Virus record (IMG/VR): IMGVR_UViG_3300047157_000104
Location: 1-62,485 of that record
Length of the DNA stretch: 62,485 nt
Strand: one strand, 5' to 3'
DNA from: a virus
Taxonomy: Duplodnaviria > Caudoviricetes
Below, piece by piece: positions 38,778-52,681 of this stretch; position 1 is the stretch's first letter; the number at the start of each line of letters is the position of its first letter. The position numbers and the translations under genes are program-made. A model generated the notes under the pieces. It saw nothing but the letters and a program-made list of their open reading frames with translations. It made no database searches and was not told the DNA's origin.

Positions 38778-39034
38778 TATTCTACGATTACTACGTCTTG
38801 TATTTGAATAACTTGATATATAGTGTCGTTTTTAGTTATACTGTGCCCAGCGTGCCTATCATAGTATACTATGTCTCCTTCGCTTAGCGTATCAGGTATA
38901 AGATCACCATTACTAATGATCTCTCCTTTTAAGTACCTATTTTCACTATCGATGCTGTCTGTAATATCTAACCCAGCGATTTGTTTCTTTTCTTTGATAG
39001 TCTTAACTATCATGTAATAACTAACTGCTCGCAT
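38777..39034 (-). CDS. groES: Co-chaperonin GroES
   Basis: 85 aa next to GroEL; GLDIT...KGEIISNG...EGDIVYYD...IQIQDVV. Confidence 0.8.
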   Translation of the reverse strand: MRAVSYYMIVKTIKEKKQIAGLDITDSIDSENRYLKGEIISNGDLIPDTLSEGDIVYYDRHAGHSITKNDTIYQVIQIQDVVIVE

Positions 39035-40613
39035 TTGGTATTCTTATATTAGATATTACACAATCTGCAGAAATTATAGTAGAAACAACACTCACTGCAT
39101 TTTTAAGCGCTGTCTTAGTAACTAGTAATGGATCTACAATGCCATTATCAATCATATTAACATTTTCACCAGTTATTACGTTACAACCAATACCTTTGTC
39201 ACCTTTTATTTCGTAAGCTATACCAGCATTATCTAATATAGTCTTATATGGTGCTCTTATTGCGTTGCAAAATATTTCTAAACCTGCGTTATCACTCATC
39301 TCTAAGTTTGCATGAATATTTTCAAGCTCAGAAGCCGCGTCCATTAGAGCTACACCTCCGCCAGGTACTATACCTTCTTGCAGAGCCGCCTTGACTGCAT
39401 ATATTGCATCCTCCACCCTGTCTTTTTTCTCTTTCAACTCAACTTTTGAGTTTGCTCCTACGCGCACAACACCGACAGAACCTGATAGCATAGCTAGTCT
39501 TTGCTCTAGTTTGCGCTTTATGTAGCCATTTTTCTCAGCTTTAATCTGATCTTTAACTTCTTTTATTCTACCAGCTAAGCTTTCGTCAATTGGTAGCGTA
39601 GTTATAACAGTATTTTTACTGTCTGTAACCACAAACTTGGCTTGACCAAGCGAATCTGGCTGTATTAGGTCTAAATCATCACCTAATTCTTCATTTATAA
39701 CCTCTGCACCTGTTAAAATGGCTAAATCATCTATAGTTTCTTTGCGCGTTGGCCCAAAACCTGGAGGATCTATGATATTTACGTTAATATTACCTTTTAC
39801 TTTATTCATTAAAAGTGCTGATTTGACCTGTTGCTCAACTTCAGCTACTAAAAGTAGTGGTTTTTTGTTCTTTATAACGTATTCAAGTACACTTTGTATC
39901 TTTCTAAGGTTAGGTATCTTGCTTGAAACGATCAATATAACCGGATTTTCAAGTTCACACCTGTTCTTTTCAGTATTAGTAGCAAAGTATGGTGATGTAA
40001 GCCCAGATTCTATTTGTACACCGTCAACTACATCAACGTATGTTTCATCTGTTTGTGACTCTTCCATCAAAACCACACCATTTTTGCCAACTTTTTTATA
40101 AGCCTTGGCTATTATGCTGCCAAGTTGGTTGTCATTGTTACAGCTAATAGAACTAACGTGATCTAGTGTAGAGTTTTTAACCTTAACACTCATGTTTTCT
40201 AATATTGCCGTAGCTTGAGCAAGGCCTGTGTCGATGCCATTTTTAATCTCTCGCACCGAACATGCTTTGTATTGCTCTTTATTGACCTCTTTAATAAGTG
40301 ATTCAGCAAGGACGATAGCCGTAGTGGTACCGTCACCTGCTTCTTTCACTGTATTTTTAGAGGCTTCCTTAATAAGTGTGGCACCTATGTTTTCAACCGG
40401 GTCGTGTAAGACTACGCTATCCGCAACGGTTACACCATCTTTTGTGATCACCGGTTTTCCCATGCCATCTTCATAGATGACACATTTTCCTGAAGCGCCT
40501 AAGGTTGATTTAACTGCTTTCGCTAGCTTCTCAACGCCACTTATAACTTTCGTTTTTGCATCAGTGCCAAAATCTAAATTCTTGACAATCTGACTTGGTA
40601 AATTATATTCCAT
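39021..40613 (-). CDS. groEL: Chaperonin GroEL (phage-encoded)
   Basis: AVKSTLG, ITKDGVTVA, AGDGTTTA, PGFG, KKDRVEDA, GIVPGGG, GIVDP. Confidence 0.95.
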   Translation of the reverse strand: MEYNLPSQIVKNLDFGTDAKTKVISGVEKLAKAVKSTLGASGKCVIYEDGMGKPVITKDGVTVADSVVLHDPVENIGATLIKEASKNTVKEAGDGTTTAIVLAESLIKEVNKEQYKACSVREIKNGIDTGLAQATAILENMSVKVKNSTLDHVSSISCNNDNQLGSIIAKAYKKVGKNGVVLMEESQTDETYVDVVDGVQIESGLTSPYFATNTEKNRCELENPVILIVSSKIPNLRKIQSVLEYVIKNKKPLLLVAEVEQQVKSALLMNKVKGNINVNIIDPPGFGPTRKETIDDLAILTGAEVINEELGDDLDLIQPDSLGQAKFVVTDSKNTVITTLPIDESLAGRIKEVKDQIKAEKNGYIKRKLEQRLAMLSGSVGVVRVGANSKVELKEKKDRVEDAIYAVKAALQEGIVPGGGVALMDAASELENIHANLEMSDNAGLEIFCNAIRAPYKTILDNAGIAYEIKGDKGIGCNVITGENVNMIDNGIVDPLLVTKTALKNAVSVVSTIISADCVISNIRIPNASS

Positions 40614-40637
40614 TAAATTAAATTGTTTTGTTATTAA

Positions 40638-40931
40638 TTACTTATCAAATGTTTTAACTACTTTCGGTCCTTCTAGATAATCTAGTTTCTTAGTGTAGTG
40701 TTCGATGCTAGCATCAATTGCTGCCTCAGCAGACTCGATGGTCTCTCGGCGTGTTACGTCGCACCAACTATTGTCGATGTGTTTGTACTCTGTTTGGTAG
40801 TACCCATTTGGTAATTGAACTATCCTCCAGTTTGCTTTGTTAGATAGGTGTTTCCAGAAGCTAATTGTGTCTTCTGATACTTGTGGTTGACCACTCCACG
40901 TATTGTTGGTCCTGTAATAAAGATACGTCAT
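40638..40931 (-). CDS. Conserved hypothetical protein
   Basis: 97-aa ORF (NWRIVQLPNGYYQTE...DVTRRET). Confidence 0.6.
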   Translation of the reverse strand: MTYLYYRTNNTWSGQPQVSEDTISFWKHLSNKANWRIVQLPNGYYQTEYKHIDNSWCDVTRRETIESAEAAIDASIEHYTKKLDYLEGPKVVKTFDK

Positions 40932-40985
40932 TGTATATTAGGTTGGTTGGTTTGTCTAGGGTGCATTTGGTTCCACGGACCCTAG

Positions 40986-41228
40986 TTACGCGGATTTGTT
41001 AACTTCTCCTCTGGTGTGAGTAGCTCGGTTATAGGCTATAGAGGTTCTTCGCAATACTCCGTTTGGTTCATGGTGGATGTCGGAATCTGACCTTTGGCCG
41101 TATGCTTGGTTCTCGGCTTTTCGCTTACGTCTCTTAGGCGTCATTGCTGCTGCCTTGTCTCTAGCACGTTTACGTCGTAGCGCAACTGGTGATAGACCTT
41201 GTGAGTTACCTGCTCGTTTTATTGCCAT
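40986..41228 (-). CDS. Basic protein with degenerate HNH-like motif; first gene of the late block
   Basis: Arg/Lys-rich, SDIHH...SIAYNRA; probable start MAIKRAG at 41228. Confidence 0.45.
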   Translation of the reverse strand: MAIKRAGNSQGLSPVALRRKRARDKAAAMTPKRRKRKAENQAYGQRSDSDIHHEPNGVLRRTSIAYNRATHTRGEVNKSA

Positions 41229-41267
41229 GTTAGGATAATCACATGTAAAGGTCACTATTTAAAAAGG

Positions 41268-41312
41268 GTGACAAAAGCCTGTTACTTATATACTCTTATA
41301 GGCTAATGTCAC
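41268..41312. promoter_or_regulatory. 45-bp imperfect palindromic site A (operator/origin-like)
   Basis: GTGACAAAAGCCT...AGGCTAATGTCAC; reverse complement is 35/45 identical to 49719..49763. Confidence 0.7.
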
Positions 41313-41593
41313 TATTTTTGGCACGTTAGATATATAGGGGTTTTGTGTTACTACTATACACCTCGCCGCCCACTTATAAAAGTAAAATGCTATTTTTATC
41401 ACCAGCCCCACCCTATTTAGATCCGTTCCAGATAATTTTATGGCGTTTTCCTGGGCGATTACCTACGATCTTACCTCAGCTATAATTATATTTCCTTAGA
41501 TTATTTCACATATTACTACAGACATTCTATGTATAGCACCTTACAATCTTAATACGAGAGTATCTAGATAATATATATGAATAACAACTACAA

Positions 41594-41833
41594 ATGAATA
41601 ACAAACAAACATTAACTTACGACGAGTACTTAGAAACACTAACAGATTATGCAGCAGATTTATTCTACGAACATGCACCGTCTCCAGCTGACGGATCAGT
41701 CGATCCATTCATAGAAAAGTACATACAAAATGCTTTCAACAATGGAGTAACATATCAACTACTAACAATAGATCTTACACTATTACTCCAACAAAGAACT
41801 AACTACTTAAATAAATTATTCTTAAATCAATAA
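41594..41833 (+). CDS. Early hypothetical protein
   Basis: 79-aa ORF after motif copy 1. Confidence 0.6.
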   Translation: MNNKQTLTYDEYLETLTDYAADLFYEHAPSPADGSVDPFIEKYIQNAFNNGVTYQLLTIDLTLLLQQRTNYLNKLFLNQ

Positions 41834-41874
41834 CTTACAAAATTAATACGAACTAATAAAGATAATACTAACAT

Positions 41875-42126
41875 ATGATATTAACACACAAACACTTTCG
41901 AAACTTACAAACTCTATCTGAAGAGATCGATCTACTCATCGACAACGAAGAATACGTAGAACATCTACAACTGGAAAATCCAGAAGATTACCTAGTCTGC
42001 TACTCTTACATACATGATATATTCAAACTCGCTAAATACTTAATAACTTATGGAATAGAGTTTCAACACTTAAACTGTCCACTATCAGATGAATCATTTC
42101 TACTAATAAACTTTAAACAGAAGTAG
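41875..42126 (+). CDS. Early hypothetical protein
   Basis: 83-aa ORF after motif copy 2. Confidence 0.6.
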   Translation: MILTHKHFRNLQTLSEEIDLLIDNEEYVEHLQLENPEDYLVCYSYIHDIFKLAKYLITYGIEFQHLNCPLSDESFLLINFKQK

Positions 42127-42264
42127 AAAGAGTGTGAGCAATACTACTAACAACAAAACAATAACAAAACAAAGTATATACTTTTACAAACTAAATACGA
42201 TGTAAACTGGATAATACTAATACAAACAAACAAATAATAATTAACTAATAAATAATAATAACTT

Positions 42265-42501
42265 ATGTCAAATCAAAATTCAATCACAAGCAAACGTTTC
42301 GTAATCAGAAAATCACTAATCGGTAAAAACACTGTAATCAAAGTCGAGTTCAAAAATGGTAAAACATTTGAGTACAATCACGACAAAGCGTTCGAAGTAA
42401 TGAAAGATAAACTCGAAGCGATGAACTGCTGGGAAAAGTACAAATCATACACTTCCAGTACAAGTGTTCCAACTCCACTACGTAACGCAGAAGTTGTGTA
42501 G
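42265..42501 (+). CDS. Early hypothetical protein
   Basis: 78-aa ORF after motif copy 3. Confidence 0.65.
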   Translation: MSNQNSITSKRFVIRKSLIGKNTVIKVEFKNGKTFEYNHDKAFEVMKDKLEAMNCWEKYKSYTSSTSVPTPLRNAEVV

Positions 42502-42524
42502 TGTACACTGGAAACTCTAAATCA

Positions 42525-42569
42525 AGTTATGTTGGCACTTAAATGTGAGTTCGATTCTCACCATAACTA
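42525..42569 (+). ncRNA. tRNA minihelix-like element (acceptor stem plus T-arm, no anticodon arm)
   Basis: AGTTATG/CATAACT 7-bp stem, GTGAG-TTCGATT-CTCAC T-arm, 13-nt linker containing GG. Confidence 0.6.
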
Positions 42570-43302
42570 CTATGCAAGTAATATTAAACAACTCAAAAGA
42601 AACGATCGACTTCACTCAAGTAATACTAAAACAAATGGCTGGTGAACTAACTCGCGAGCAAGTACAAGAACTAATAAATAAAGCAAGAAATGAAAAATAA
42701 TATGAATAAAGAATTTGAAACAATACTACGCTGGAATGACAGCACAGAAACATTAGATAGACTATATCGCTACGCAGATGGAACAGAAGTTGTATTCTCT
42801 CGTGGAGTTGATAGAAGAAACGAAAATACAAAATAAATACGAATAAAGTAAGATAATATATATACAATATGAATAGAAGAATACCACACTGGAACAAAGT
42901 AGCTCACCCGTACAAACTAATGTACAAACGTAATCAAGAAACTGGTGCACTTGATATAATCAAAGCATACAACAACGATAAAGGTGAAATCACATCAATC
43001 AAAACAGTAGGTAAAGGATAATTATGCAGAAACATTCACACACAAAATTAAGTAAAGCAATGCTATACACGCAAATAGTGGCAGTATTGTCAGTAGTAAC
43101 AGCAATGGCGTTCGCCATGTACACAATAATAGTAAGATAACCATGAAGAAATCAATATTAAAAGTATTAGCAATAGTAGGATCGATCGAGTCAGTAGGTT
43201 GCTTCTTAGTAGAAGAACCAGCGATGGGTTATATCTTTGCGGTGATCGCAATACCATCAATCCTAGAATTAACTAACATGCACATTAAAGAACAAGAACA
43301 AA

Positions 43303-43566
43303 ATGAAGATAGTAGTAAGTAAACAATCAATAGAAAAAGCAATGCTAACAAAAGTAAATGCAGCTATAAATGTAGCAAAAGACTGCGCTAAGAGAGGTAT
43401 AACAAGTTTTAACATAGCTGTACCTGAAGGTGCTGGCTACACTCAGTATGACTTCATAAATGAAGTAGAACACTTGACAGAACATACAGTATATGCAGGT
43501 CATAGAGCAGTGTCAGGCGAGTCAATTAAGTTTTCAATAGCAGAAGAAGATAGAATATATGGATAA
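43303..43566 (+). CDS. Early hypothetical protein
   Basis: 87-aa ORF within a run of tightly packed short ORFs (about 42570-43860). Confidence 0.55.
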   Translation: MKIVVSKQSIEKAMLTKVNAAINVAKDCAKRGITSFNIAVPEGAGYTQYDFINEVEHLTEHTVYAGHRAVSGESIKFSIAEEDRIYG

Positions 43567-43676
43567 AACACTAATTATATGGGCGCTTGAAACGCTAAGA
43601 GAGCAAGCACTCGACGCAGAAGAAATACAACTCGTAGCAAGAATAACAAAAGAAATTAATAAAGTAAAAGTAAATT

Positions 43677-43862
43677 ATGCAGAAGAACATTAAAAAAGCA
43701 ACACCAGAATTTTTCCACGCCTCAATATTTGACATAGTACACGTAAAAGAAACAGGTCAATCGATCGTGGTAAAAGAAGAAGAGTACTTAAAATTCTATG
43801 ATGATCGTGTAGAGATCGCGTCATCAAGTGAAATACCATCGTGGATAAGAGAAATGTATTAG
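43677..43862 (+). CDS. Early hypothetical protein
   Basis: 61-aa ORF ending just before motif copy 5. Confidence 0.5.
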   Translation: MQKNIKKATPEFFHASIFDIVHVKETGQSIVVKEEEYLKFYDDRVEIASSSEIPSWIREMY

Positions 43863-43903
43863 AATTTACAATACAAATACGAACACTATAAGATAATAAT
43901 AAC

Positions 43904-44122
43904 ATGAATATACAAATTTGCAAATGCGGCGGGCCAATACACCCAGTAAGAATAAAACTATCATACAAAACTTGTGTCAAGTGTAGTACAACTGAACCTT
44001 ATGGCGCAGTACCTATCACTAACCACAAAACAGGTAATAACTTTCAGTTTATGCCAAAGTCACAAGCAGATAGTATTAATAAAGCCGCAAGGCGCAAAGG
44101 TTATGGAACATGCTTAAGATAA
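43904..44122 (+). CDS. DksA/TraR-like C4 zinc-finger protein
   Basis: CKCGGPIHPVRIKLSYKTCVKC resembles the C..CG..I...R....C..C pattern. Confidence 0.55.
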   Translation: MNIQICKCGGPIHPVRIKLSYKTCVKCSTTEPYGAVPITNHKTGNNFQFMPKSQADSINKAARRKGYGTCLR

Positions 44123-44307
44123 TAAAATACACTATATGAATAAAATTAAAACATTAGAATTAAACGACTTCGGAGTACCAAGTAAAATACAAATTACTTA
44201 CACCGATCAAGAACCACAAGTGCTAAATAAAGTAAACACAACTTACTTTTATGCAGACAAGAAGTATAACTCGTACTCTCAATGGTACACAATAAACGGT
44301 AACACTT

Positions 44308-44703
44308 ATGTATAACTACAGTAGCATAAAATTCGAAGATCGCCACAAGGTGGAAGATGCTTTCGCAAAGTCAATGGAAATAATATATGGTATACAAGAA
44401 GTAACTACAACTCGCCAGCGTAGTAATGGTACAAGATCATTTCTTATGCCAACAGGCCAGCGCATCGCTTGCTACAAGTCAGGTTATGTAAGAAAAGTAT
44501 CTCCTACAAGTAGATGGTATCAACTAAACAAGAAGTACCTTAAAGAAACTAGGTGGACCGTAATGAGCAATGACGGTAGTTTATCAACTACAAGATCTAT
44601 GTGTTGGGAGCGTGAGCTAATACTAAGTCCACTTGCACGTATGAAGTATATGCTAGACTTCTACCTTAGAAATTACAAAACAAATACGAATAGTAATCGA
44701 TAA
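44308..44703 (+). CDS. Early hypothetical protein
   Basis: 131-aa ORF; its 3' end runs through motif copy 6. Confidence 0.6.
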   Translation: MYNYSSIKFEDRHKVEDAFAKSMEIIYGIQEVTTTRQRSNGTRSFLMPTGQRIACYKSGYVRKVSPTSRWYQLNKKYLKETRWTVMSNDGSLSTTRSMCWERELILSPLARMKYMLDFYLRNYKTNTNSNR

Positions 44704-44710
44704 TAATAAC

Positions 44711-44902
44711 ATGGAAAATATATTTAACGAACAAACATATCTCTTTGTACTAGACTTTGACGATGGCAAGTGCTATAGATATAGATACAACACGTCAATG
44801 GGTAAGATAGAAGACTTTATAGAGCAAGCAGGTCATAGATTAATGTTTGTAGAGTATATGTTAACAGAAAAACCAATAGTAATGTATGTAAATTATGAGT
44901 AG
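44711..44902 (+). CDS. Early hypothetical protein
   Basis: 63-aa ORF after motif copy 6. Confidence 0.55.
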   Translation: MENIFNEQTYLFVLDFDDGKCYRYRYNTSMGKIEDFIEQAGHRLMFVEYMLTEKPIVMYVNYE

Positions 44903-45289
44903 AATTATATCACCGTGGGAATTAGCCTACACAAAGTTAAAAGAACACTACAGCAAAGATCAAATAGACGATATGCTATGGTGTGAAGTTGAAGAATTAT
45001 TAATCAGAGAAGAAAGAGATGCAGAAGAAAATTGAAGACATTGCTAGCGGTGTTGCTATACACATGCAAGAGCTGCTACTAGACACGGTGGATTGGCAGA
45101 TAGACGATCTACCACACGAAAAAAGACAAGAGCTAATTAAGCTATCTGTAGAAAAACTACAAAGCTTAATAAGCTAAAGACACACCCAGCGAATAAATAA
45201 CAAACCTCGGTAAATTGAATCAAATCAAGGCAAGCGTTCCTTCCTCCGGAATTGTTTCATGAGCAAAGGTAGCAAATGACTGGGTATAT

Positions 45290-45466
45290 GGGCATAAATG
45301 GATTTTAAATAGCGATTAAAGGCGTAATCCTGACGAGGTGTAATAAGCGGCTCGATGAAGGTTTACTTATCCGTCATAGTGATGACACCCGACCAGGAGG
45401 CAATGAAGCTATGTAGGTAAGTAATAAAGCTATGGTAGGCAGGTTCGATTCCTGCCATGTCCACCA
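45290..45466 (+). ncRNA. Short tmRNA/tRNA-Ala-like structured RNA (177 nt)
   Basis: 5' GGGCATA pairs with 3' CATGTCC-A-CCA (G3:U70, A73, mismatch at pair 7); T-arm GCAGG-TTCGATT-CCTGC; unpaired TGGATT D-loop mimic; ATAGC/GCTAT helix. Confidence 0.6.
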
Positions 45467-45523
45467 TTTACAATATAAATACGATGACAGTAGGATATTA
45501 AGTATAAAATTAAATAAAAATAT

Positions 45524-45787
45524 ATGAAAAGAATTACATTATTACACAGGCTAAAGCCAGAAGTTAAAGCAGCATTAGAAAAAAACAAACTAGATTACGA
45601 TTTCTCTATCGACCTTATCTACAAAGAGTTAGATGAAGTTGTAGTGTACCAAGATCTTAAAATGTCTACTATATACTCTATATACTTATTTAGTAGCATA
45701 GATATGTATGAAGCTGATGTGTATGACATCAGGTGGGGCGGTAATTTATTCTTAGAAGATAACGATTTAACAATAGAAACATTATGA
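45524..45787 (+). CDS. Early hypothetical protein
   Basis: 87-aa ORF after motif copy 7. Confidence 0.55.
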   Translation: MKRITLLHRLKPEVKAALEKNKLDYDFSIDLIYKELDEVVVYQDLKMSTIYSIYLFSSIDMYEADVYDIRWGGNLFLEDNDLTIETL

Positions 45788-46014
45788 GCAAAACAAAAGA
45801 ATTACCAGAGTGGTTTGATGGTATCAAATACTCTGAAGGCGAAACGATCACTAACCCGTTTTCAGGCGATAGCTATGACTGTAGCGCAGATGAAGCAGCT
45901 ATGTACGACCTAATTATGGGTGCAAACATGACTAAAAACTGGACAATAGTACAAAAAGGTTGTGACTGGTTTAGAAAAGCAAACCCTGAAGCATATATGG
46001 TGCTACTAGATTAA
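45784..46014 (+). CDS. Conserved phage hypothetical protein
   Basis: 76 aa (NPFSG...WFRKANPEAYMVLLD). Confidence 0.6.
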   Translation: MSKTKELPEWFDGIKYSEGETITNPFSGDSYDCSADEAAMYDLIMGANMTKNWTIVQKGCDWFRKANPEAYMVLLD

Positions 46015-46053
46015 TTTACAAATACAATACGAAACAAGTAAGATAATAATAAT

Positions 46054-46260
46054 ATGAATAAATTAACTGGATTTGAAAGGTTCTGCATAAGTTCTGCATT
46101 AGATATGTGGATCAAAGAACAAGAACAACACATCGTAAAAGCTGAAGCAGCTGGTAAACGAACAATAATAGCACAAGGCTATTGGAAAATGGTCGGTGAA
46201 GACCTAGAGCGTAAAATAACTAAATTAACATATAAAAAACACTTAGAAGATGTCAGATAA
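46054..46260 (+). CDS. Early hypothetical protein
   Basis: 68-aa ORF after motif copy 8. Confidence 0.55.
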   Translation: MNKLTGFERFCISSALDMWIKEQEQHIVKAEAAGKRTIIAQGYWKMVGEDLERKITKLTYKKHLEDVR

Positions 46261-46714
46261 AATTATAATAGAAGAAGTATTATGGGAAAAGCTTGAAGAA
46301 AAAGGTATTAAGCAACCATACGACACAGATCATGAAGAACAATTAGAAAAAGTATTAGATCATTGGGATGCTAGCATAACGGGCGACTGGGATGACAGCT
46401 GCAATAGATGGTTTTATATGGAATCAACAGCCGACAGCTATGAATTATACGTAGCTACATATGGTAAACCTAATGATATTAGTATAGGTGAAAATGTATA
46501 CTACTACGAAAACGGTTGGCTAGAAGAGCTACCTAACTGCATAAAAGACGGTGCTAATATATTTTTCTCAGAGCTAGAAACTGGTAACTACGAGTTTATA
46601 GATGCTATTAACGAAACGTATGAGCATTACTTCGAAGACAAAGTAGAAGAAATGCAAGATGAACTACTAGATCAAGGTTGGATACTTCAAAACGACATGG
46701 TGATCGATGCCTAA
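46250..46714 (+). CDS. Highly acidic hypothetical protein
   Basis: 154 aa, very D/E-rich with few basic residues. Confidence 0.6.
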   Translation: MSDKIIIEEVLWEKLEEKGIKQPYDTDHEEQLEKVLDHWDASITGDWDDSCNRWFYMESTADSYELYVATYGKPNDISIGENVYYYENGWLEELPNCIKDGANIFFSELETGNYEFIDAINETYEHYFEDKVEEMQDELLDQGWILQNDMVIDA

Positions 46715-47117
46715 TATTAAAGAACTTGACATAGTGTATATGAACATAGCTGGTGAAATTAGCCAGCTAAGTAAATGCAAAAGAAAGAAGGTCGGTGCTA
46801 TTATAGTTAAAGATAACAATATATTATCCTTTGGTTATAACGGTACGCCTTCTGGCTTCTGCAACACTTGCGAGGAAGACGACAGGACAAAATGGTCTGT
46901 ACTACACGCAGAGTCTAACGCTATAGTTAAAGTAGCTAAATCTACCAACAGTTCAAGTGGATCTACGCTGTACTGTACGTTGTCTCCCTGTAGAGATTGC
47001 AGTAAGTTGATAATACAAGCAGGTATAATTAAGGTAGTATACAAAGAAGTTTATGAAGGATCAACCGAAGGGCTTGATCTTATGGAAGAATCAGGAATAA
47101 AAATAATAAAAATATAA
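46707..47117 (+). CDS. dCMP deaminase (ComEB family)
   Basis: KVGAIIV, GYNGTPSG, HAESNA, PCRDC zinc motifs. Confidence 0.93.
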   Translation: MPNIKELDIVYMNIAGEISQLSKCKRKKVGAIIVKDNNILSFGYNGTPSGFCNTCEEDDRTKWSVLHAESNAIVKVAKSTNSSSGSTLYCTLSPCRDCSKLIIQAGIIKVVYKEVYEGSTEGLDLMEESGIKIIKI

Positions 47118-47581
47118 TGGGTACAAGAAGTTTAACAAGAATAATACCAAGACAAGAAGGTTTGTCTTACAGTGAAGGTCATACTAGAGCTGAGTTAGCG
47201 CTAGTAAACATATATCAACAGTACGATGGTTATCCAGAGTATATGGCTGTTGAGTATGCAGAGTGGTTGAAAGATATAAAGATCATTAATGGCTTAGGCG
47301 GTAACAAAAATCTTAATGAGATAGCTAATGGAGCAGGTTGCTTTGCAGCTCAGTTCATAGCTAAATTCAAAGATCGAGCTGGTCAAATGTATCTACAAGC
47401 AATAGACAACGAGATCGGTTGGGCTGAGTATATATATACTTTATACCCTAAAGCAGATCACGACACTTATATGTCTATATATAAAGTTTCTACTAGAACT
47501 GTTATATTTGTAGGTAAGCCAGAAAAAGCTCTACAACGGTACGATGAAAATTACAAAACAAATACGAAACAAGAAGGATAA
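47117..47581 (+). CDS. Conserved phage protein (MGTRS...YDGYP type), function unknown
   Basis: 154-aa ORF; its 3' end runs through motif copy 9. Confidence 0.65.
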   Translation: MGTRSLTRIIPRQEGLSYSEGHTRAELALVNIYQQYDGYPEYMAVEYAEWLKDIKIINGLGGNKNLNEIANGAGCFAAQFIAKFKDRAGQMYLQAIDNEIGWAEYIYTLYPKADHDTYMSIYKVSTRTVIFVGKPEKALQRYDENYKTNTKQEG

Positions 47582-47601
47582 TAATATAAAAAATATACAA
47601 A

Positions 47602-48438
47602 ATGAAAAAAGCCATGTTAGCACACAAGTTCGATCAATCACGTATCGACTTCAAAAGACCAATTTACATTCAAGCAAAGCTTGACGGCGTTCGCTGCTTA
47701 TTCACGAAAGACGGTGCATTCTCACGCAACGGCAAGCAGTTCATGAACGTACGTCACATTGAAATGGCACTCAAGCCTTTCTTTGCTGAACAACCAGATG
47801 TAGTACTCGATGGCGAGCTTTACAATCACAAGCTAAAGCGCGACTTCGAAAAGATCATATCACTAGTACGTAAGCAAAAGCCTACAGATGAAGACAGGCT
47901 CGATGCTCAGCATCTAGTACAGTTTCACGTATATGATTACTTCGATGGTGTGATGTATGACAACTATCAAGCGCGTATGCAGTTACTTGTAAACGCAGGT
48001 TTCTACGATGCACAGATCAAGCACGTTCCTGCATTACTAGTTGATAGCTACAATTACGCTAGAGTTCAGCACGAAGAGTTTTTATCACTCGGTTACGAAG
48101 GCTCAATTATAAGAAATGGCGATGGTATATACAAGCACGGTAGATCTTACGATCTAATGAAGTTCAAAGACTTCAGCGACACCGAAGCTACTATCATCGA
48201 TTATGTTACTGGTAAAGGTAAACGGACTGGCACGCTTGGCAAGTTCATTATGCAAGATGACGACGGTGTAGTGTTCGGTTGTCCTCCGGGCAAGGGCTAC
48301 TCGTACAAGGATCTTAAAACAATGCTCAAGAACGTAGATTCTTTTATTGGCAAGCGCGCTACCTTTACTTATTTTCAAAGAACTAAAGCTAACAGCTACA
48401 GACACCCACTATTTAAATGTATTAGAAATTATGAATAA
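47602..48438 (+). CDS. lig: ATP-dependent DNA ligase
   Basis: KLDGVR, LDGEL, FHVYD, EGSIIR, LMKFK, RHPLF. Confidence 0.93.
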   Translation: MKKAMLAHKFDQSRIDFKRPIYIQAKLDGVRCLFTKDGAFSRNGKQFMNVRHIEMALKPFFAEQPDVVLDGELYNHKLKRDFEKIISLVRKQKPTDEDRLDAQHLVQFHVYDYFDGVMYDNYQARMQLLVNAGFYDAQIKHVPALLVDSYNYARVQHEEFLSLGYEGSIIRNGDGIYKHGRSYDLMKFKDFSDTEATIIDYVTGKGKRTGTLGKFIMQDDDGVVFGCPPGKGYSYKDLKTMLKNVDSFIGKRATFTYFQRTKANSYRHPLFKCIRNYE

Positions 48439-48610
48439 TATAACAGATTACAGAGCAGTTGGCCTTGCTGAAGGATTTGAAGAAGGCACTGAAGAAGAAA
48501 TAATTGAAGCTTGGCAACATCTACATGATACTGGCTTAGCTTACACACTACAAGGCTGGTTCGGAAGAGCAGCATCAAACTTAATAGAACAAGGAATTAT
48601 AAATGAATAA
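48431..48610 (+). CDS. Small conserved phage protein
   Basis: MNNITDY...AWQHLHDTGLAYTLQGWFGRAA; ATG overlaps the ligase end. Confidence 0.55.
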   Translation: MNNITDYRAVGLAEGFEEGTEEEIIEAWQHLHDTGLAYTLQGWFGRAASNLIEQGIINE

Positions 48611-49115
48611 ATTATTAATAGCAACTATAGCAGTGAGCTTAGCGATGCCAAAAAGCAACGTGAGTAATGCTATACACAAGTCCGCTCCGGCAGACGAGCA
48701 AGTAAAAGTAACGATCGAGCCATCATGGGAAGATTTAATCGATGCGATAATCTACGTAGAAAGTAGAGGTAACGACTCTGCTATTGGCGATCGAGGTAAA
48801 GCTGTAGGCTGTTTACAAATACAACCTATATGCGTAAGAGAAGTTAATAGAATACTGCGTAAGCATAAGTCAAACGTAAGATACTCATTACAAGATCGTT
48901 ACAGTAGAGAAAGATCCATACAAATGTTTAACATTGTTGCAGAGCAGTATGCATGTTGTGAGTATGTTACATTTATGGAGTATGCAGAGATCGTATCTAG
49001 AAGATGGAATGGCGGTCCTCGCGGAGATAAAAAGAAAGCAACAATTAAATATTGGTACAAAGTTAAACCACATTTACAAAACAAATACGAAGAACATAAG
49101 ATAACAAACACATGA
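48603..49115 (+). CDS. Lysozyme-like/lytic transglycosylase with N-terminal signal sequence
   Basis: AIIYVESRG...GCLQI...WNGGP; hydrophobic N-terminus. Confidence 0.75.
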   Translation: MNKLLIATIAVSLAMPKSNVSNAIHKSAPADEQVKVTIEPSWEDLIDAIIYVESRGNDSAIGDRGKAVGCLQIQPICVREVNRILRKHKSNVRYSLQDRYSRERSIQMFNIVAEQYACCEYVTFMEYAEIVSRRWNGGPRGDKKKATIKYWYKVKPHLQNKYEEHKITNT

Positions 49116-49591
49116 ACATATTTTATTTAGACGCAGATCCAGATACGGCTGCTAGGTTACAATACAATAAACACGTTGTAAAAATGGTTCTTGAGTCAGC
49201 TCAAATGCTATGCTCGGCGCATCATTTTCATGGCAATGGTGACAACGTTCCATACAAAGTAAGCCACATTAACCATCCAAGCACCATCTGGACTCGTTCT
49301 AATACTAAGCATTACAATTGGTTATACCAACATATGATGTCTTTAGGAGATGAATATACGTTCAGATATGGCAAAACACATTTGACAATTACTAAATGCA
49401 GAGATGCTCTTAAATGGCCTCCTATGGGCATGACTACGTCAGATTTTAAGCAACCTCCACAAGCAATGCCAGATGAATACAAAAGCGCATGTAGTATAAA
49501 GGCCTACTGGAGATACTATATTGCTGAGAAACACACAGTAGCAAACAAAAATGAGAAAATTTATGAAGGAGATTATAATAAAATTATTTAA
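49112..49591 (+). CDS. Pyrimidine-dimer DNA glycosylase-like protein (T4 endonuclease V superfamily)
   Basis: MNIFYLD...KHVVKMVLESAQML...HINHPSTIW...PPQAMPD. Confidence 0.7.
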   Translation: MNIFYLDADPDTAARLQYNKHVVKMVLESAQMLCSAHHFHGNGDNVPYKVSHINHPSTIWTRSNTKHYNWLYQHMMSLGDEYTFRYGKTHLTITKCRDALKWPPMGMTTSDFKQPPQAMPDEYKSACSIKAYWRYYIAEKHTVANKNEKIYEGDYNKII

Positions 49592-49718
49592 AAGAATAAG
49601 TAATTTTTTTAATGGATTAGTTGCCGCATTAGAAGATGCCGCATATGTAAATGAAGTTAAAAAAGTAACTAAAACAAAGAAAAAGAAAACAAAAAAATAA
49701 AGTAAATATAACATGGCT

Positions 49719-49763
49719 ATGACAATAGCCTATAAGGATTAATAAGTAACTAGCTAATGTCAC
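49719..49763. promoter_or_regulatory. 45-bp imperfect palindromic site B overlapping the ATG of the HTH gene
   Basis: ATGACAATAGCCT...AGCTAATGTCAC; inverted homologue of 41268..41312. Confidence 0.7.
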
Positions 49764-50374
49764 ATGATAGAAATATAAAATGGCTGCATGATAAACGTGT
49801 TATTACACGGTGTTGGCCATGGGAGGATTTACCTAGCAACGAGACTAATCTGTACATGTATTATCAAGAAGGTACATTTCAATGTTATACATTGTTTGCA
49901 AGTAAAGCTAAAATTACTACATACAAATCTTTAAAATGGCATTTTTTAGTTTTAATGTTTTTAAACGAAGACGAAACAGCAGAGTTTATGGAATCTATAT
50001 TTAGATTTATAGCTGATAAAGAAAATGGTTTTGTAACTTTTTTTATAAAACAAACAGTATTAAATAGCATGATAGAAAATGTACTTATGTCACATGGTAA
50101 CCCACCTGTAAATAAAATGCGTAAAGTTATATTTAAACCTGCGGCTTGGCATCTAACATTAAGTGAAAAGCTTAGTATTGTTGGCAAACTTATAGGTAGA
50201 AATAAATTAAACAAAGAAATGCTTTATCAAAGCATGTTAGATATAAACGACGAAGGACAAAGCATAACAACTAAAAAACTAGCAAACCTGCTAAATGTAA
50301 CACAGAGAACAATATATCGCCACATGTGCGATACGCTAAGAACAGAAAAACAAATATTAAATGAAGAGCTATAA
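49757..50374 (+). CDS. DNA-binding protein with C-terminal HTH
   Basis: ITTKKLANLLNVTQRTIYRHM. Confidence 0.7.
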   Translation: MSHDRNIKWLHDKRVITRCWPWEDLPSNETNLYMYYQEGTFQCYTLFASKAKITTYKSLKWHFLVLMFLNEDETAEFMESIFRFIADKENGFVTFFIKQTVLNSMIENVLMSHGNPPVNKMRKVIFKPAAWHLTLSEKLSIVGKLIGRNKLNKEMLYQSMLDINDEGQSITTKKLANLLNVTQRTIYRHMCDTLRTEKQILNEEL

Positions 50375-51116
50375 CGTAAGTAATTACATAAAATATAAAA
50401 CCGATCTTAACAGATCAATGCCTGACGAAGAAAAAGACTATGCTACTCTCACTAGAGACGAACTTATAGTTAGGTTTCTACCTTTAGTAGAGAACTTAGC
50501 ACGTAAATTTTCTACGTCTCAACAAGCATCTGGTGTATTAAGCATCAATGATCTTATACAAGAAGGATCTGTAGGCTTAATAGCTGCGGTTGATAGAATC
50601 GACTGGGTAAAGCTATGCGAATCAGATGACATAGAAAAAACTATAAAGTCTTTTTTAAGCAAAAGAATAAAGGGTGCAATACGAAGAGCTGTCGATATAA
50701 ACAGAGGAAACATACGTATACCTGAGCACAAGCTTAATGAGATAAGAAAAGACTTTGGTAAAAACAGACAAATGGTTGAAATGTTTTTTAACAGTATATT
50801 TTTAAGTATTGATGCAAAGCCTAATCAAGATGAGAATATGGCATATCAAATTGCAGATACATCAGAGCCATACAATAAAGAATTACTTAATTTGTATTTA
50901 AAAGGCTTACTCAAGAAACATCTCAACGACAAAGAATACAACGTACTTAGGTTAAGCTACGGTTTAGATTGTGACAAGCATAGCGCAAAACAAATAGCAG
51001 AACAGTTAGATATAAAAGGTACGTCAGCTTATGTTAGAGTTTCACAACTAAAAAAGCAAGCCGTAGAAAAACTTATTGATAACGTAGATCACTCTCAAGT
51101 GCTTGATTATCTTTGA
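50361..51116 (+). CDS. Phage RNA polymerase sigma factor (sigma70 family)
   Basis: Region 2: LPLVENLARKF...DLIQEGSVGLIAAVDR...IRIP; region 4: VLRLSYGL...KQIAEQL...RVSQLKKQAVEKL. Confidence 0.88.
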   Translation: MKSYNVSNYIKYKTDLNRSMPDEEKDYATLTRDELIVRFLPLVENLARKFSTSQQASGVLSINDLIQEGSVGLIAAVDRIDWVKLCESDDIEKTIKSFLSKRIKGAIRRAVDINRGNIRIPEHKLNEIRKDFGKNRQMVEMFFNSIFLSIDAKPNQDENMAYQIADTSEPYNKELLNLYLKGLLKKHLNDKEYNVLRLSYGLDCDKHSAKQIAEQLDIKGTSAYVRVSQLKKQAVEKLIDNVDHSQVLDYL

Positions 51117-51175
51117 GTTAAACGTTAAAAACTAAAATAAATGTGTAATTATAATAATATCAAACCAACATACCT

Positions 51176-51712
51176 ATGACGTTAAACGACAAATTAACAG
51201 AAATCCAAACTAGATTTAAATCAAAAAAATCTAGGTTCAACTCATTCGGCAAATACCACTTTCGCAGTGCCGAAGACATTCTCGAAGCAACAAAACCCTT
51301 TTTAAAGGAGCTAGGCGTAACAGTTACAATTAATGAAGAATTAATAGCTGATAGCCCTATGCCTGTAATAAAGACTACAGCATCAGTAAACGACGGCAAA
51401 AGTGCTATACACGCAGCTGCCATTGTAGGTGTTGATCTTAATCAAAAAGGTATGCAAACTCCTCAACAGTTTGGATCTGCCTCGAGTTATGCTAAAAAAT
51501 ATGCGTTAGGTAACTTATTTTTAATTGATGACACTCAAGACAGTGACGCTGCCAATACACACGGCAAAGGCTCTGCAAGTACGCTAACGTCTGTAAAAGA
51601 TCCTGCGTTTGCAAAAGCTAAAGCTTATGTTAAAAACGGCGGCAAGCTTGATGCTATCAAGGCAAAATACAAATTAAGTGCTGAAGTTGAGAAAGCACTA
51701 ACAACATTATAA
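51176..51712 (+). CDS. ERF-family single-strand annealing protein
   Basis: FNSFGKYHFRSAEDILEA...QQFGSASSYAKKYALGNLFLIDD..DSD. Confidence 0.85.
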   Translation: MTLNDKLTEIQTRFKSKKSRFNSFGKYHFRSAEDILEATKPFLKELGVTVTINEELIADSPMPVIKTTASVNDGKSAIHAAAIVGVDLNQKGMQTPQQFGSASSYAKKYALGNLFLIDDTQDSDAANTHGKGSASTLTSVKDPAFAKAKAYVKNGGKLDAIKAKYKLSAEVEKALTTL

Positions 51713-52444
51713 ATGGATAAAAAACAAATAATAGAAAAGCTACGTGACGATGAAAGCTATTACGGTAAGTTTGGTAAACAGTACTTAAGTAATAGCGACA
51801 TTAGCACATTATTAAAAAATCCTTTAGCGCTAGGTACACCTAGTAAACCTTCAGCTGCCTTTTTAGTAGGTGGTTACTTTCATACTGCAATACTTGAGCC
51901 ACATAAGCTTAAGAAGTATAAAGTTATCGAAGCGTCTACTAGGAATACTAAAGCGTATAAAGAGATGTCAGGTGGTGAGTTATGTTTGTTGCAACAAGAG
52001 GTTGACAATATAGAGTTATTGACAGATAAGATCATGTCTAACGATATATGCAGAGATCTTATACGCAAAGGAGAAATAACTTACGAAGAACCTGGCATTA
52101 CGGAGATAAATGATCATATGTGGAAAGGTAAGGCTGATATAGTTAATCACAGCGAAAAGCTAGTGGTTGATCTTAAAACCACCAACGACATAAGCAAGTT
52201 TAGATCTTCAGCTTGGAAATACAATTATGATAGCCAAGCATATATTTATAGCAAGATATTTGGTTATGAGTTAATATTTATAGCAATAGATAAAAACACA
52301 CACCAAATAGGTTTATTTGACTGCTCTACTGAATTTATAGAGCGTGGCATTGAAAAGGTTAGCAAAGCCACAGAAGCATATGAGTTGTTCTACAATACAG
52401 AAAACTTTGACGCTGAACAATACTTTATTAACAAAACTTTATAG
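51713..52444 (+). CDS. PD-(D/E)XK exonuclease (RecE/ExoVIII-like)
   Basis: LSNSDI, GGYFHTAILEP, KGKAD, VDLKTT, YDSQAYIY. Confidence 0.8.
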   Translation: MDKKQIIEKLRDDESYYGKFGKQYLSNSDISTLLKNPLALGTPSKPSAAFLVGGYFHTAILEPHKLKKYKVIEASTRNTKAYKEMSGGELCLLQQEVDNIELLTDKIMSNDICRDLIRKGEITYEEPGITEINDHMWKGKADIVNHSEKLVVDLKTTNDISKFRSSAWKYNYDSQAYIYSKIFGYELIFIAIDKNTHQIGLFDCSTEFIERGIEKVSKATEAYELFYNTENFDAEQYFINKTL

Positions 52445-52502
52445 TTTTACAAAATAAATACGATAACCTCAAGATAATAATTAAAAATAAAAATTAAAAT
52501 TT

Positions 52503-52679
52503 ATGGCAAGAACCAGAAAAAACCCAACAAGACTATGCACAGTAACTGGCGTGAAGACCAGCGAAAGCAATTTTTACAAAAACCAAAACCACGTTAAAGC
52601 TGTGGATAACATCAGGCGTAATACCGGTGCTACAAAAGATCAGCTTAGACGTATGTTTAATCAATTAAAAACTTATTAA
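52503..52679 (+). CDS. Small basic hypothetical protein (58 aa, not in ORF track)
   Basis: MARTRKNPTRLCTVTG...NQLKTY; follows motif copy 11. Confidence 0.5.
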   Translation: MARTRKNPTRLCTVTGVKTSESNFYKNQNHVKAVDNIRRNTGATKDQLRRMFNQLKTY

Positions 52680-52681
52680 TT

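Follow-up and report, generated by a model that had tools for sequence, protein, structure and literature searches.

Two inverted 43-bp elements that probably form a switch for late gene expression in a marine phage of the Flavobacteriia-phage lineage

Why would a lytic-looking marine phage of the Flavobacteriia-phage lineage carry one sequence twice in inverted orientation, once ahead of its late genes and once on the start codon of a gene encoding a helix-turn-helix (HTH) protein? In the stretch of DNA that we analysed (62,485 nucleotides, hereafter the window), the reverse complement of 41268-41312 is identical to 49719-49763 at 35 of 45 positions without gaps, as a preliminary description of this DNA had reported, and the pair is the longest inverted repeat among those listed for the window. 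Taken without comparison genomes, this match is marginally above chance; the best inverted 45-mer matches in eight dinucleotide shuffles (the two halves of the window shuffled separately) were 32, 34, 32, 32, 32, 32, 33 and 34. The significance of the pair comes from comparison with other genomes and not from the bare match. A weight matrix built on 50 distinct B sites from other genomes (the window and its two nearest relatives left out) found just two sites in the window, and the conserved element is 43 bp long:

41269-41311, minus strand: site A, TGACATTAGCC..AAGTAAC..GGCTTTTGTCA, 39.9 bits; homologues in 41 of the 42 loci with sufficient flank
49720-49762, plus strand: site B, the 43-bp element, 52.0 bits; in 82 of 82 loci

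Read on the opposite strand, the two sites scored 20.9 (A, plus) and 14.9 bits (B), the next-best position in the window 13.8 bits, and the best matches in 200 block-shuffled windows averaged -0.4 bits (sd 4.6, maximum 20.6). Both sites have the TGACA...TGTCA arms and the asymmetric core that the preliminary description had recognised; with inner arms included, the dyad (TGACA..AGC / GCT..TGTCA) flanks a directional core. They are inverted on the genome, yet each has the same orientation relative to its downstream gene: A is directed at the late operon and B at an HTH-sigma-Erf-exonuclease operon.

Site B is found at the HTH gene in all 82 related loci, with the ATG of that gene at positions 38-40 of the element in 79 of them, and an A-type site lies 4.8-9.4 kb upstream, at the strand switch, in 41 of the 42 loci that have at least 9 kb of upstream flank; the co-conserved pairs that the preliminary description had suggested looking for beside homologues of 49757-50374 are thus present. 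No locus has a plus-oriented far-upstream match to the weight matrix, and genomes carry two copies as a rule. The bare arm pattern TGACA-N32-34-TGTCA matched in 3, 5, 2, 2 and 2 places in five relatives: G001, G004 and G005 have two true sites each (the third G001 match is unrelated), in G003 one match is a true site and the other unrelated, and the B site, whose changed left arm escapes the pattern, was located separately; G002 has five true sites. Four of these five point at a gene that follows closely; no downstream gene was identified for the fifth (at 8181). Sites were found only where the sigma gene is present; in MW202828.1, the closest deposited relative, tblastn matched neither the HTH protein nor the sigma factor, and no weight-matrix match reached 10 bits.

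That the pair is a chance similarity or a hairpin (a terminator or a cruciform) is barely credible. The bare 35/45 match only just exceeds the shuffles, but conservation of the element over 82 loci excludes chance. For a hairpin speaks the predicted single-stranded DNA fold of site A (-7.6 kcal/mol, z -4.56), but the arms lack covariation, 28 of 200 shuffles fold as well as site B or better, neither site is followed by a T-run, and neither is among the terminators listed by a terminator scan. The outer arms (TGACA / TGTCA) and inner arms (AGC / GCT) are conserved as sequence: their pairing is 73.1% compared to 75.8% in shuffles (500 of 500 shuffles as high), and at arm position 6 only about 10% of the sites have complementary bases. 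Moreover, the serine codon within the right arm of B is TCA in 54 of 54 distinct B sites, and the non-coding A sites retain TGTCA. We infer from these patterns that the arms are a protein site rather than a nucleic-acid structure. Centre to centre, the outer arms are 38 bp apart, which is too long for one small dimer on straight DNA, so that a simple dimer-operator picture is insufficient.

Two candidates for proteins acting at the element, the HTH protein and the sigma factor, are encoded behind site B, followed by the rest of the unit that B heads:

49757-50374, plus strand: HTH gene, 205-aa product, with an N-terminal domain (1-148) and a C-terminal HTH (149-205)
50361-51116, plus strand: sigma-70 family factor, 251 aa, regions 2 and 4 (Pfam Sigma70_r2 and r4; phrog_351; TIGR02937)
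51176-51712, plus strand: Erf-type annealing protein, with the exonuclease the remainder of the site B unit
51713-52444, plus strand: PD-(D/E)XK exonuclease, where the site B unit ends, before an early-type repeat at 52446

As the preliminary description had pointed out, site B contains the HTH start codon (49757-49759, within the right arm), and the HTH gene overlaps the sigma gene, in the window by 14 nt; the overlap is 14 or 4 nt in 64 of 64 distinct sigma genes (from 81 loci). The sigma factor scores 57.7 bits against TIGR02937 (cutoff 42.9). In an AF2 model of the HTH protein (pLDDT 89.1) the C-terminal 57 residues (149-205) are predicted to form a three-helix HTH fold, for which Pfam gives a weak HTH_11 match below cutoff (E 4e-4); the N-terminal domain has no recognised fold (best Z 4.8 in the fold search), and none of 6818 relatives of the protein is informatively named. 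The HTH protein is a candidate for binding the dyad arms, and the sigma factor an equally good one for reading the directional core. Because the two proteins always co-occur in the loci compared, these comparisons cannot assign arms and core to one or the other.

The asymmetric core, 19 bp long, is the best-conserved part of the element. TAA occupies its positions 14-16 and an almost invariant AAGTAA positions 25-30; among 87 distinct sites A26, T28 and A29 never vary, and conservation of G27 and A30 is 90% or more. AGTAA lies 7 nt before the ATG, hence the hexamer AGTAAY 6 nt before it; in site B a -10-like AGTAAC (49745-49750) is followed by 6 nt and then the HTH start codon. The core shares this hexamer-N6-ATG spacing with a family of repeats in the early region:

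41540-52481, all plus strand: early promoter-like repeat TTACAAAAnAAATACGA-N9-GATAAT, eleven copies (repeat family D1)

Four of the eleven copies have an ATG exactly 6 nt past GATAAT or GATAAC, and 45 of the 46 loci that have both sites (all but L079) carry 3-11 plus-strand D1-like matches each, while no locus has more than one on the minus strand. AGTAAY differs from the early-repeat hexamer at its first two positions, and it may therefore be read by the phage's own sigma factor. The core was not listed by a promoter scan for E. coli-type consensus sequences, nor does it match the Bacteroidota -33/-7 consensus.

Such features could also mean that the element is a promoter for the sigma factor and nothing more, feeding back positively at B and driving late transcription at A, with arms that are promoter parts or incidental and an HTH protein that has some other role. 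We hold this to be rather improbable. It would account for a directional core with -10-like geometry, for the TGACA-type box at -37 to -33 (whose start-to-start spacing of 25 nt compares with 26 nt for the TTACA box of the early repeats) and for sites that are present only alongside the sigma gene. However, a promoter could do without a repeat of its upstream box in inverted form at +2 to +6 and without the inner AGC/GCT dyad, the symmetry is stronger still in a distant clade (see below), and each locus shows the HTH gene both fused to the site and coupled with the sigma gene.

At the other end of the early region, site A lies at the strand switch, and 40 nt separate 41269 from the ATG (41228) that starts the first late gene, in agreement with the preliminary description:

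41235-41243, minus strand: TGTGATTAT, extended -10-like box, 25 nt past site A and 6 nt before ATG 41228
40986-41228, minus strand: first gene behind site A, encoding an 80-aa basic protein with no family match

Site A spans -41 to -83 relative to this ATG, its centre being 62 nt upstream, and a longer GTG-started frame of the same gene runs from 41255. Past the 80-aa gene follow a 97-aa ORF, GroEL (39021-40613) and the structural genes to position 1. The sequence before the first late gene reads cTTTaAAA ... TGTGATTAT-N6-ATG, ending in GATTAT-N6-ATG, and the TGTGATTAT box is a possible proximal late promoter. Among 41 distinct late-proximal flanks, 29 have a GTRAnHAK box 24-33 nt past the A-type site (in a 30th the box starts at 52 nt), and in 12 flanks the next ATGG comes exactly 6 nt after the box. 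Since a separate -10-like box lies proximal to A, the element need not be a promoter there.

A pure operator or activator site, in which the 43-bp element contains no promoter and binds a multimer of the HTH protein, is an unlikely reading. At A (-41 to -83) it would switch the proximal late promoter on or off, and at B it would cover the start of the HTH gene and repress read-through from the early repeat at 49073. In its favour, the dyad arms are conserved as sequence, and the -10-like box past A-type sites in 29 of 41 flanks puts the element in a position common for upstream activators. B is preceded at 650 nt by an early-type repeat, only two short ORFs intervening, and one RNA-library contig spans 49374-49870 over B, although a contig over two genes is not equivalent to a single transcript and assembled contigs do not reveal transcript starts. 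This reading leaves unexplained why conservation peaks in the asymmetric core, with AGTAA nearly invariant, and why the core-ATG distance is fixed at 6 nt (79 of 82 loci), equal to that of the early repeats; against it also stands a partial duplication in L002-L004 that retains an AAGTAA-like box beside the ATG.

In a distant clade (L089-L092), whose HTH protein is 37% identical over its full length (N-terminal domains 41%), a 50-bp element with different, 16-nt arms (GTGTAAAnnTAGTAAG) lies 12 nt before the HTH gene, and the one record long enough (G006) has a second copy 10 kb off in opposite orientation. Architecture and inverted pair are thus kept while the arms differ, and arm symmetry is stronger than in the main group. 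Comparing the recognition helix with the change of arms from TGACA to CGAC revealed no clean correlation. The co-conserved pairs and the pair in the distant clade fit a trans-acting autoregulator that is encoded at its own site and would also act at the head of the late operon.

The preliminary description had offered as an alternative that the HTH protein is an initiator and the sites are replication origins, a reading to which we give very little probability. The cumulative GC skew is lowest at 40-42 kb, the position of site A, and a putative DNA binder is encoded among replication and recombination genes; however, the minimum coincides with the switch in coding strand, which by itself suffices to produce it. 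Furthermore, the repeat listing of the window has no iterons or repeats around the sites, no sign of a Rep, PriCT or winged-helix initiator emerged from Pfam, a PDB profile search or fold searches (RepB' and ColE2 Rep reached no more than Z 4.0-4.1, amid unrelated rows), and neither the start-codon register nor the gene-directed orientation is expected of origins. The same description had judged inversion of the 8.4-kb early segment less likely, and we concur, considering it very unlikely indeed. Inverted arms around an asymmetric core, in the inverted arrangement of lox- or hix-like sites, would suit recombination, as would the gene for a DNA-binding protein adjoining one site. Yet the segment has the same orientation in all 46 loci with both sites, with early repeats on the plus strand and 2762-7294 ORF bases between the sites on the plus strand versus 0-603 on the minus strand (non-overlapping, longest ORFs chosen). 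No recombinase family was found in the region, the N-terminal domain does not have the fold of a resolvase or integrase (TM ~0.13 for the resolvase rows from Foldseek), and the joints listed for four runs include no strand-changing one at A or B, in contigs that drop rare variants. Inversion would also deprive the HTH gene of its conserved upstream half-site.

On these sequence comparisons, A and B probably form a switch for late gene expression, and we give roughly even odds, about 50%, to the specific reading that the element combines a promoter core with an enclosing operator to which the HTH protein binds. A and B would then be two copies of one cis-regulatory module in the transcription programme of the phage, each a directional promoter core within a dyad operator. 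AGTAAY would serve as the -10-type element, its spacing equalling that of GATAAT in the early repeats, and transcripts from B would begin at the ATG or just beside it and be leaderless or nearly so. The dyad arms would be bound by the HTH protein encoded directly behind B, which could thereby control its own synthesis and that of the sigma factor and, through the copy at A, the head of the 41-kb block of late genes, by either activation or repression. Directly upstream of the proximal -10-like box, A may be a promoter, an upstream activator site or both. The preliminary description had likewise proposed that the HTH protein autoregulates and controls the early/late switch, which the pairs in the main group and the distant clade fit; what it had missed is the gene-directed orientation, the promoter-like core and the sigma factor as a potential reader.

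Phage switches of this type are familiar, and the A/B pair would be a new example. Like loxP, FRT and hix sites, A and B have inverted arms around an asymmetric core and occur as an inverted pair, but no recombinase was found, 0 of 46 loci are inverted, and the 19-bp core has promoter-like boxes. Dyad activator sites also occur at the late promoters of P2 (Ogr), P4 (Delta) and Mu (C, Mor). RinA, as far as the cited account describes it, activates the single late promoter of staphylococcal phages (PMC3152322). Like these systems, the window phage is predicted to use a small DNA-binding protein and a dyad upstream of a late or packaging promoter, in one or few copies per genome. Their sites, however, are short dyads that are not known to have a conserved asymmetric core or to overlap the regulator's start codon, their proteins have zinc-finger or other folds, and the window phage has just two sites, one of them proposed to be autoregulatory. 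In the modelled HTH protein, VIA-align superposes residues 149-205 alone on TetR-type HTH domains (5ojy_A, Z 6.6, rmsd 2.6 A over 51 residues), a Z under the level that separates relatives from common arrangements in that search; TetR has its HTH at the N-terminus followed by a ligand-binding helical domain, whereas here it is C-terminal behind an unrelated alpha/beta domain. In the lytic phage phiEco32, the cited account describes gp36 as a sigma factor and gp79 as binding RNA polymerase and gp36 (PMC12276001). The proposed pairing of an own sigma-70 family factor with a second small protein for phage promoters resembles that system, but the target of gp79, as given there, is not a DNA dyad, and we found no similarity to gp79.

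According to the accounts consulted, the early protein p4 of the Bacillus phage phi29 throws the early-to-late switch from sites between the early promoters A2b/A2c and the late promoter A3, which are inverted repeats of the form 5'-AACTTTTT-15 bp-AAAATGTT-3' bound by two protomers (PMC1904284, PMC3100819). Like the p4 sites so described, site A lies at the junction of diverging early and late units, but the HTH protein has no sequence or fold relation to p4. We know of no p6-like partner in the window phage system. Compared to phi29 as portrayed in those accounts, the window phage differs in having arms separated by 33 bp with a conserved directional core between them, another copy of the element over the start codon of the regulator gene itself, and a phage-encoded sigma factor.

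The window is the complete IMG/VR virus record (62,485 bases, linear, estimated 97% complete), which carries minus-strand late genes and plus-strand early genes; the features relevant to the inverted pair of sites are as follows:

41228 down to position 1, minus strand: terminase, portal, structural proteins, tail fibre, holin, GroES and GroEL genes
41269-41311, minus strand: site A, before the late operon
~41.6 to 60.3 kb, plus strand: small early and DNA-metabolism genes
49720-49762, plus strand: site B, on the ATG of the HTH gene
49757-50374, plus strand: HTH gene (protein of 205 aa)
50361-51116, plus strand: gene for a sigma-70 family factor

The DNA-metabolism set includes dCMP deaminase, ligase, Erf, exonuclease, primase-helicase, thymidylate synthase, MazG and ribonucleotide reductase. 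At 46% identity the large terminase matches those of Flavobacterium, Cellulophaga, Tenacibaculum and Maribacter phages, and at 63% that of the uncultured podovirus MW202828.1, the closest deposited relative; judging from these relatives, the host is most likely a member of the Flavobacteriia. Megablast of 40000-52000 against deposited phages gave no match. The phage encodes its own GroEL (Cpn60, E 1e-59; 39021-40613, minus strand), which follows site A as the third gene in every relative inspected, and a GroES-like co-chaperonin (27865-28461, minus strand). At the far end of the structural block lies a 2022-aa ORF (2227-8295, minus strand; no PHROG match at E <= 1e-5), with counterparts of 2714 aa in the related genome G002 and 3859 aa in MW202828.1. 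Within a 1427-aa tail-fibre-like gene (29401-33684, minus strand), a 42-60-nt repeat (..GGACTAGTAGTTCCTATACCAAYGTTGCC) recurs 8-9 times at dispersed places, with spacings that are multiples of 3 and thus point to a repeated protein module. In the early region, an Rfam tRNA model matches 42492-42569 (plus strand) at 30.3 bits (gathering score 29, E 0.027) and ARAGORN finds no tRNA anywhere in the window; the match may be a tRNA-like element or chance.

The preliminary description had noted that the reverse complement of 41268-41312 is identical to 49719-49763 at 35 of 45 positions, and both stretches and the count are as written there. This match is the top inverted repeat of the window, and the best 45-mer inverted matches in eight dinucleotide shuffles reached 32-34, so that the 35/45 match in isolation is weak. 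We judge the pair real because of comparison with other genomes rather than because of the bare match. With the HTH protein behind site B as query in IMG/VR, where 374 viral contigs encode a relative, we collected 10 and then 80 related loci (the best 80 of the 374). A weight matrix built from 50 distinct B sites of other genomes scored 52.0 bits at B and 39.9 bits at A (minus orientation) in the window, compared with 20.9 bits (A) and 14.9 bits (B) for the sites' own opposite-strand readings, at most 13.8 bits in the rest of the window and a top score of 20.6 in 200 shuffled windows, which confirms the original observation.

Looking for co-conserved pairs at HTH homologues, as had been proposed, bore out the pairing: site B lies just upstream of the HTH gene in 82/82 loci (window counted), and an A-type site lies 4.8-9.4 kb upstream in 41 of the 42 loci whose upstream flank measures 9 kb or more (L036 being the sole one without). 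The ATG falls at B-site positions 38-40 in 79/82 loci; in the other three, which are near-identical (L002-L004), B is displaced upstream by 32-33 nt, and the ATG is still adjoined by part of the site's right half in a second copy that includes an AAGTAA-like box. Gene order is constant at both places, with a small basic protein, a ~97-aa ORF and GroEL following the A-type site, and HTH, sigma, Erf and exonuclease following B. All A-type sites detected by the matrix are oriented opposite to B, and ten loci carry 42- or 44-nt variants detectable by pattern only (eleven sites, six minus-oriented and five not orientable). The bare arm pattern TGACA-N32-34-TGTCA occurs at 3, 5, 2, 2 and 2 places in five related genomes. 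G001, G004 and G005 have two true sites apiece (the third pattern match in G001 is unrelated), and in G003 one match is a true site and one is unrelated, its B site having been located separately because a changed left arm hides it from the pattern. G002 (loci L013/L014) has five true sites (at 7271, 8181, 14779, 15561 and 27172), four of them directly ahead of a gene in their pointing direction; the site at 8181 has no identified gene downstream. Its extra sites comprise a tandem copy near the strand switch, a copy ahead of a 131-aa ORF that lies upstream of the HTH gene, and a further copy preceding three small genes on the minus strand behind the giant ORF; two A-type copies likewise occur in L040, L065 and L081.

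Oppositely oriented sites could also be recombination sites at which the intervening segment inverts, a reading that we consider barely plausible: the segment codes on the HTH strand in all 46 loci having both sites (0/46 inverted), and Pfam and PHROGs identified no recombinase family in 24 ORFs, mostly of at least 100 aa, within 36.7-60.3 kb. The preliminary description had held inversion to be less likely as no recombinase was visible, and these two results agree with it. Of 20 sequencing runs listed (16 on record as RNA), the four examined revealed no strand-changing joint at the sites and no position at which molecules begin or end; all four consist of assembled contigs, which drop rare variants and do not preserve transcript starts, ends or strands. 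A site-specific inversion system of the Hin/Gin or Cre/FLP type comprises a recombinase gene and both orientations of its segment, and neither was found here.

The anatomy of the 43-bp element was derived from 87 distinct sites (54 B, 33 A), aligned toward the downstream gene. Ten positions are invariant (A3, C4, A26, T28, A29, C35, G40, T41, C42 and A43) and eight more are at least 90% conserved (G2, A5, A8, G9, A16, G27, A30 and T39). Because of this pattern we read the element as a dyad whose arms, TGACA..AGC (positions 1-10) and GCT..TGTCA (34-43), flank a directional core (TAA at 14-16, AAGTAA at 25-30). The dyad is maintained as sequence rather than as base pairs: arm pairing is 73.1% versus 75.8% in column shuffles (500/500 shuffles as high), the covariation score of the arms is 0.066 versus 0.080 in shuffles, and arm position 6 is complementary in only ~10% of sites. 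Codons 1-2 of the HTH gene fall in the right arm of B, where the serine codon is TCA in 54/54 distinct B sites, and non-coding A sites retain TGTCA as well; the constraint therefore acts on DNA. We give practically no weight to the possibility that the similarity is due to chance, given the conservation across 82 loci, or that the sites form a hairpin or intrinsic terminator, given the lack of compensatory changes in the arms and of a T-run after the sites, and since B as single-stranded DNA folds with a z of -1.19, no better than 28/200 shuffles. Around the left arm of B, a small palindrome (GGCTAT-GACA-ATAGCC, 49715-49730) puts TGACA in a loop. Matching flank changes occur there in a subset of relatives (GGCTA/TAGCC, AAGGG/CCCTT, GGCA/TGCC), the mean best stem of the GGCTA-TGACAA-TAGCC hairpin being 3.35 versus 2.92 with swapped flanks, a weak trend confined to that subset; this palindrome is absent at A sites.

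The ATG at 49757 within the arm of B is the true start of the HTH gene, because the first 33 residues of the protein are conserved and well modelled and relatives measure 204-208 aa. The public gene call (P0022, 172 aa) starts from the ATG at 49856, i.e. 33 codons too late, and is corrected here. Since the B element ends within the HTH gene, any promoter for this gene lies within or upstream of the element.

The core of the element resembles in its geometry D1, a family of early promoter-like repeats with 11 highly conserved copies of a 36-nt repeat (TTACAAAAnAAATACGA-N9-GATAAT; 41540-52481, plus strand), all upstream of genes. D1-like plus-strand matches occur in 45 of the 46 loci having both sites (3-11 per locus; none in L079), and minus-strand matches at most once per locus. 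D1 is laid out as a T(T/G)ACAA box, a ~20-nt spacer, an xxTAAx hexamer, 6 nt and ATG, and the sites have this geometry in common: the start-to-start spacing is 26 nt from TTACAA to GATAAT in D1 and 25 nt from TGACAA to AGTAAY in the sites. The ATG follows GATAAT or GATAAC by exactly 6 nt in 4/11 D1 copies (8 and 11 nt in two others), compared with hexamer-N6-ATG in 79/82 B sites; site B of the window reads AGTAAC, 6 nt, ATG, and the first late gene TGTGATTAT, 6 nt, ATG. Bacterial transcription starts 6-8 nt after the -10 hexamer, and this distance together with the hexamer-N6-ATG spacing suggests that the early, B and first-late messages are leaderless or nearly so. The sites differ from D1 in missing its middle box (AATACGA) and in the first two bases of the hexamer (AG versus GA), the sort of difference that separates promoter classes of different sigma factors.

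Neither element fits two known promoter types. For the E. coli-type sigma-70 class we used TTGACA and TATAAT 16-18 nt apart, with A at -10 position 2 and T at position 6; a consensus scan of 40800-52800 listed neither site (53 matches versus 48.0 ± 6.0 expected). The E. coli-like boxes by reading (GTGACA-N16-TATAAG at A, ATGACA-N16-AATAAG at B) have G in place of the final T, and the best conserved bases, AGTAA, sit 3-4 nt downstream of this -10 box. In housekeeping promoters of Bacteroidota, TAnnTTTG precedes the start by ~7 nt, and TTTG lies another 19-21 nt upstream (-33/-7). TAnnTTTG is absent from the consensus and from all 87 aligned sites, which resemble this class only in the 20-nt spacing from upstream box to -10-like box. 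D1 likewise matches neither consensus.

The candidate binder of the arms is the 205-aa HTH protein (predicted fold pLDDT 89.1), whose residues 149-205 superpose on TetR-type three-helix HTH domains (VIA-align, Z up to 6.6). The N-terminal 148 residues, modelled alone at pLDDT 91.6, gave no VIA-align match above Z 4.8. Neither the whole protein nor this domain had a Foldseek match in PDB at E <= 0.001, the best hit of a PDB profile search had E 0.028, and an ESM Atlas search returned the protein's own viral clusters only. TetR-family proteins carry an N-terminal HTH followed by a C-terminal ligand-binding domain; here the HTH is C-terminal, is the sole aligned part and has no TetR Pfam match, placing the protein outside that family. 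Its own family, a large one in metagenomes, counts 6818 relatives at 90% clustering, some from ocean surveys, with no informative annotation.

The sigma factor has Pfam regions 2 and 4 and scores above the TIGR02937 cutoff, and the overlap between its gene and the HTH gene measures 14 or 4 nt in 64/64 distinct cases (81 loci). Complex prediction for the two proteins scored 0.01 (mark 0.32), which is uninformative either way on their binding. In tblastn against deposited phages the HTH protein found no match and the sigma factor nine weak ones only, none in Flavobacteriia phages. MW202828.1 shares the genome layout, including GroEL at the strand switch; tblastn matched neither protein there and no matrix match reached 10 bits. 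On this one control genome and the conservation across loci, the HTH protein and the sites appear to go together.

A replication origin, with the HTH protein as a Rep-type initiator, is highly improbable. A GC-skew minimum at 40-42 kb near A, the sole point in its favour, is explained by the switch of coding strand at that place, so the skew proposed as a check is present and confounded; the sites have no iterons, and Pfam, PDB profile and fold searches turned up no Rep, PriCT or winged-helix initiator family or fold for the protein.

Queries toward distant HTH clades in IMG/VR gave four loci with protein P0135, one with P0168 and none with P0150. In L089-L092 the full-length HTH protein is 37% identical to that of the window (N-terminal domains 41%) and a sigma-like gene overlaps its gene. 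A 50-bp element with longer, different arms (GTGTAAAnnTAGTAAG and its complement, 14/16 matching by reading) lies 12 nt before the HTH gene, and in G006 (85% complete; the sole record long enough) an oppositely oriented second copy lies 10 kb away. The same layout and inverted pair with different arms indicate that the architecture is older than the arm sequence, as co-evolution with a trans-acting binder would give. These loci do not assign either protein to a part of the element, because the sigma factor diverges in step with the HTH protein. The recognition helix showed no clean pattern against the TGACA to CGAC arm variant. The early region of L089 (306-9330, 3288-7490) has repeat families of its own, a palindrome ACGGGTATTTGAATACCCAC in 5 copies and AATAGGTGATG-N2-CTTACCATCAATTAnATTATG in at least 5, the CTTACCATC box of which resembles the inner arm of the 50-bp element.

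With about even odds, we propose that the element is a promoter-plus-operator module, present in two copies per genome, that would link HTH-sigma expression with the start of the late gene block. As would be expected of a dyad operator, the half-sites are conserved as sequence, a cognate candidate has a predicted HTH domain and the arms vary with protein clade; their 38-bp separation is unusual for a dimeric HTH regulator. A pure operator, which would only bind the HTH protein and contain no promoter, seems rather unlikely, and a pure sigma promoter, whose arms would be no HTH operator, is distinctly so, as each accounts for just half of the conserved pattern. Element A occupies -41 to -83 from the first late ATG and is followed by a conserved cTTTaAAA stretch and a -10-like box; it could itself fire (start near 41274, 46-nt leader), could serve as upstream site for the proximal promoter, or could do both. 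The main preliminary interpretation is supported in part, by co-conservation of the sites with the HTH gene; the initiator or origin role is not, no initiator family or fold having been found. A bolder and unlikely proposal treats HTH and sigma, translationally coupled, as a two-part promoter-recognition unit: the sites would form a new promoter class, with sigma on the AAGTAA core, HTH clamping the arms at about -35 and +4 and leaderless transcripts, two sites running the whole late programme of abundant uncultured marine Flavobacteriia phages.

The literature searched held no description of the element or the HTH protein, and the main text of the transcriptome of a related Cellulophaga phage (PMC5335546) contains none of the terms promoter, sigma, palindrom, inverted repeat or transcriptional regulator. 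The analysis provides a regulatory map for an uncultured phage group: early promoter-like repeats, about eleven in number, and two elements, of which one marks the regulator-sigma operon and the other the late-gene head. [quoted passage not shown] It would help in understanding the timing of infection in marine Bacteroidota and could be of use as genetic parts. Late activators that bind dyads in P2, P4 and Mu are close to such a switch in function, and so is RinA (PMC3152322). The closest functional arrangement is the phi29 p4 switch, in which inverted repeats lying between divergent early and late promoters are bound by an early protein of the phage (PMC1904284, PMC3100819), and phiEco32 gp36 and gp79 offer a known case of a phage sigma working with a small partner (PMC12276001). 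None of these proteins is known to be related in sequence or fold to the HTH protein, and none of the systems is known to have, on the start codon of its own regulator, a 38-bp-wide dyad together with a conserved promoter-like core. Judging by comparative sequence, the element would represent a familiar type of phage switch, here in a group of marine phages that is large and lacks annotation.
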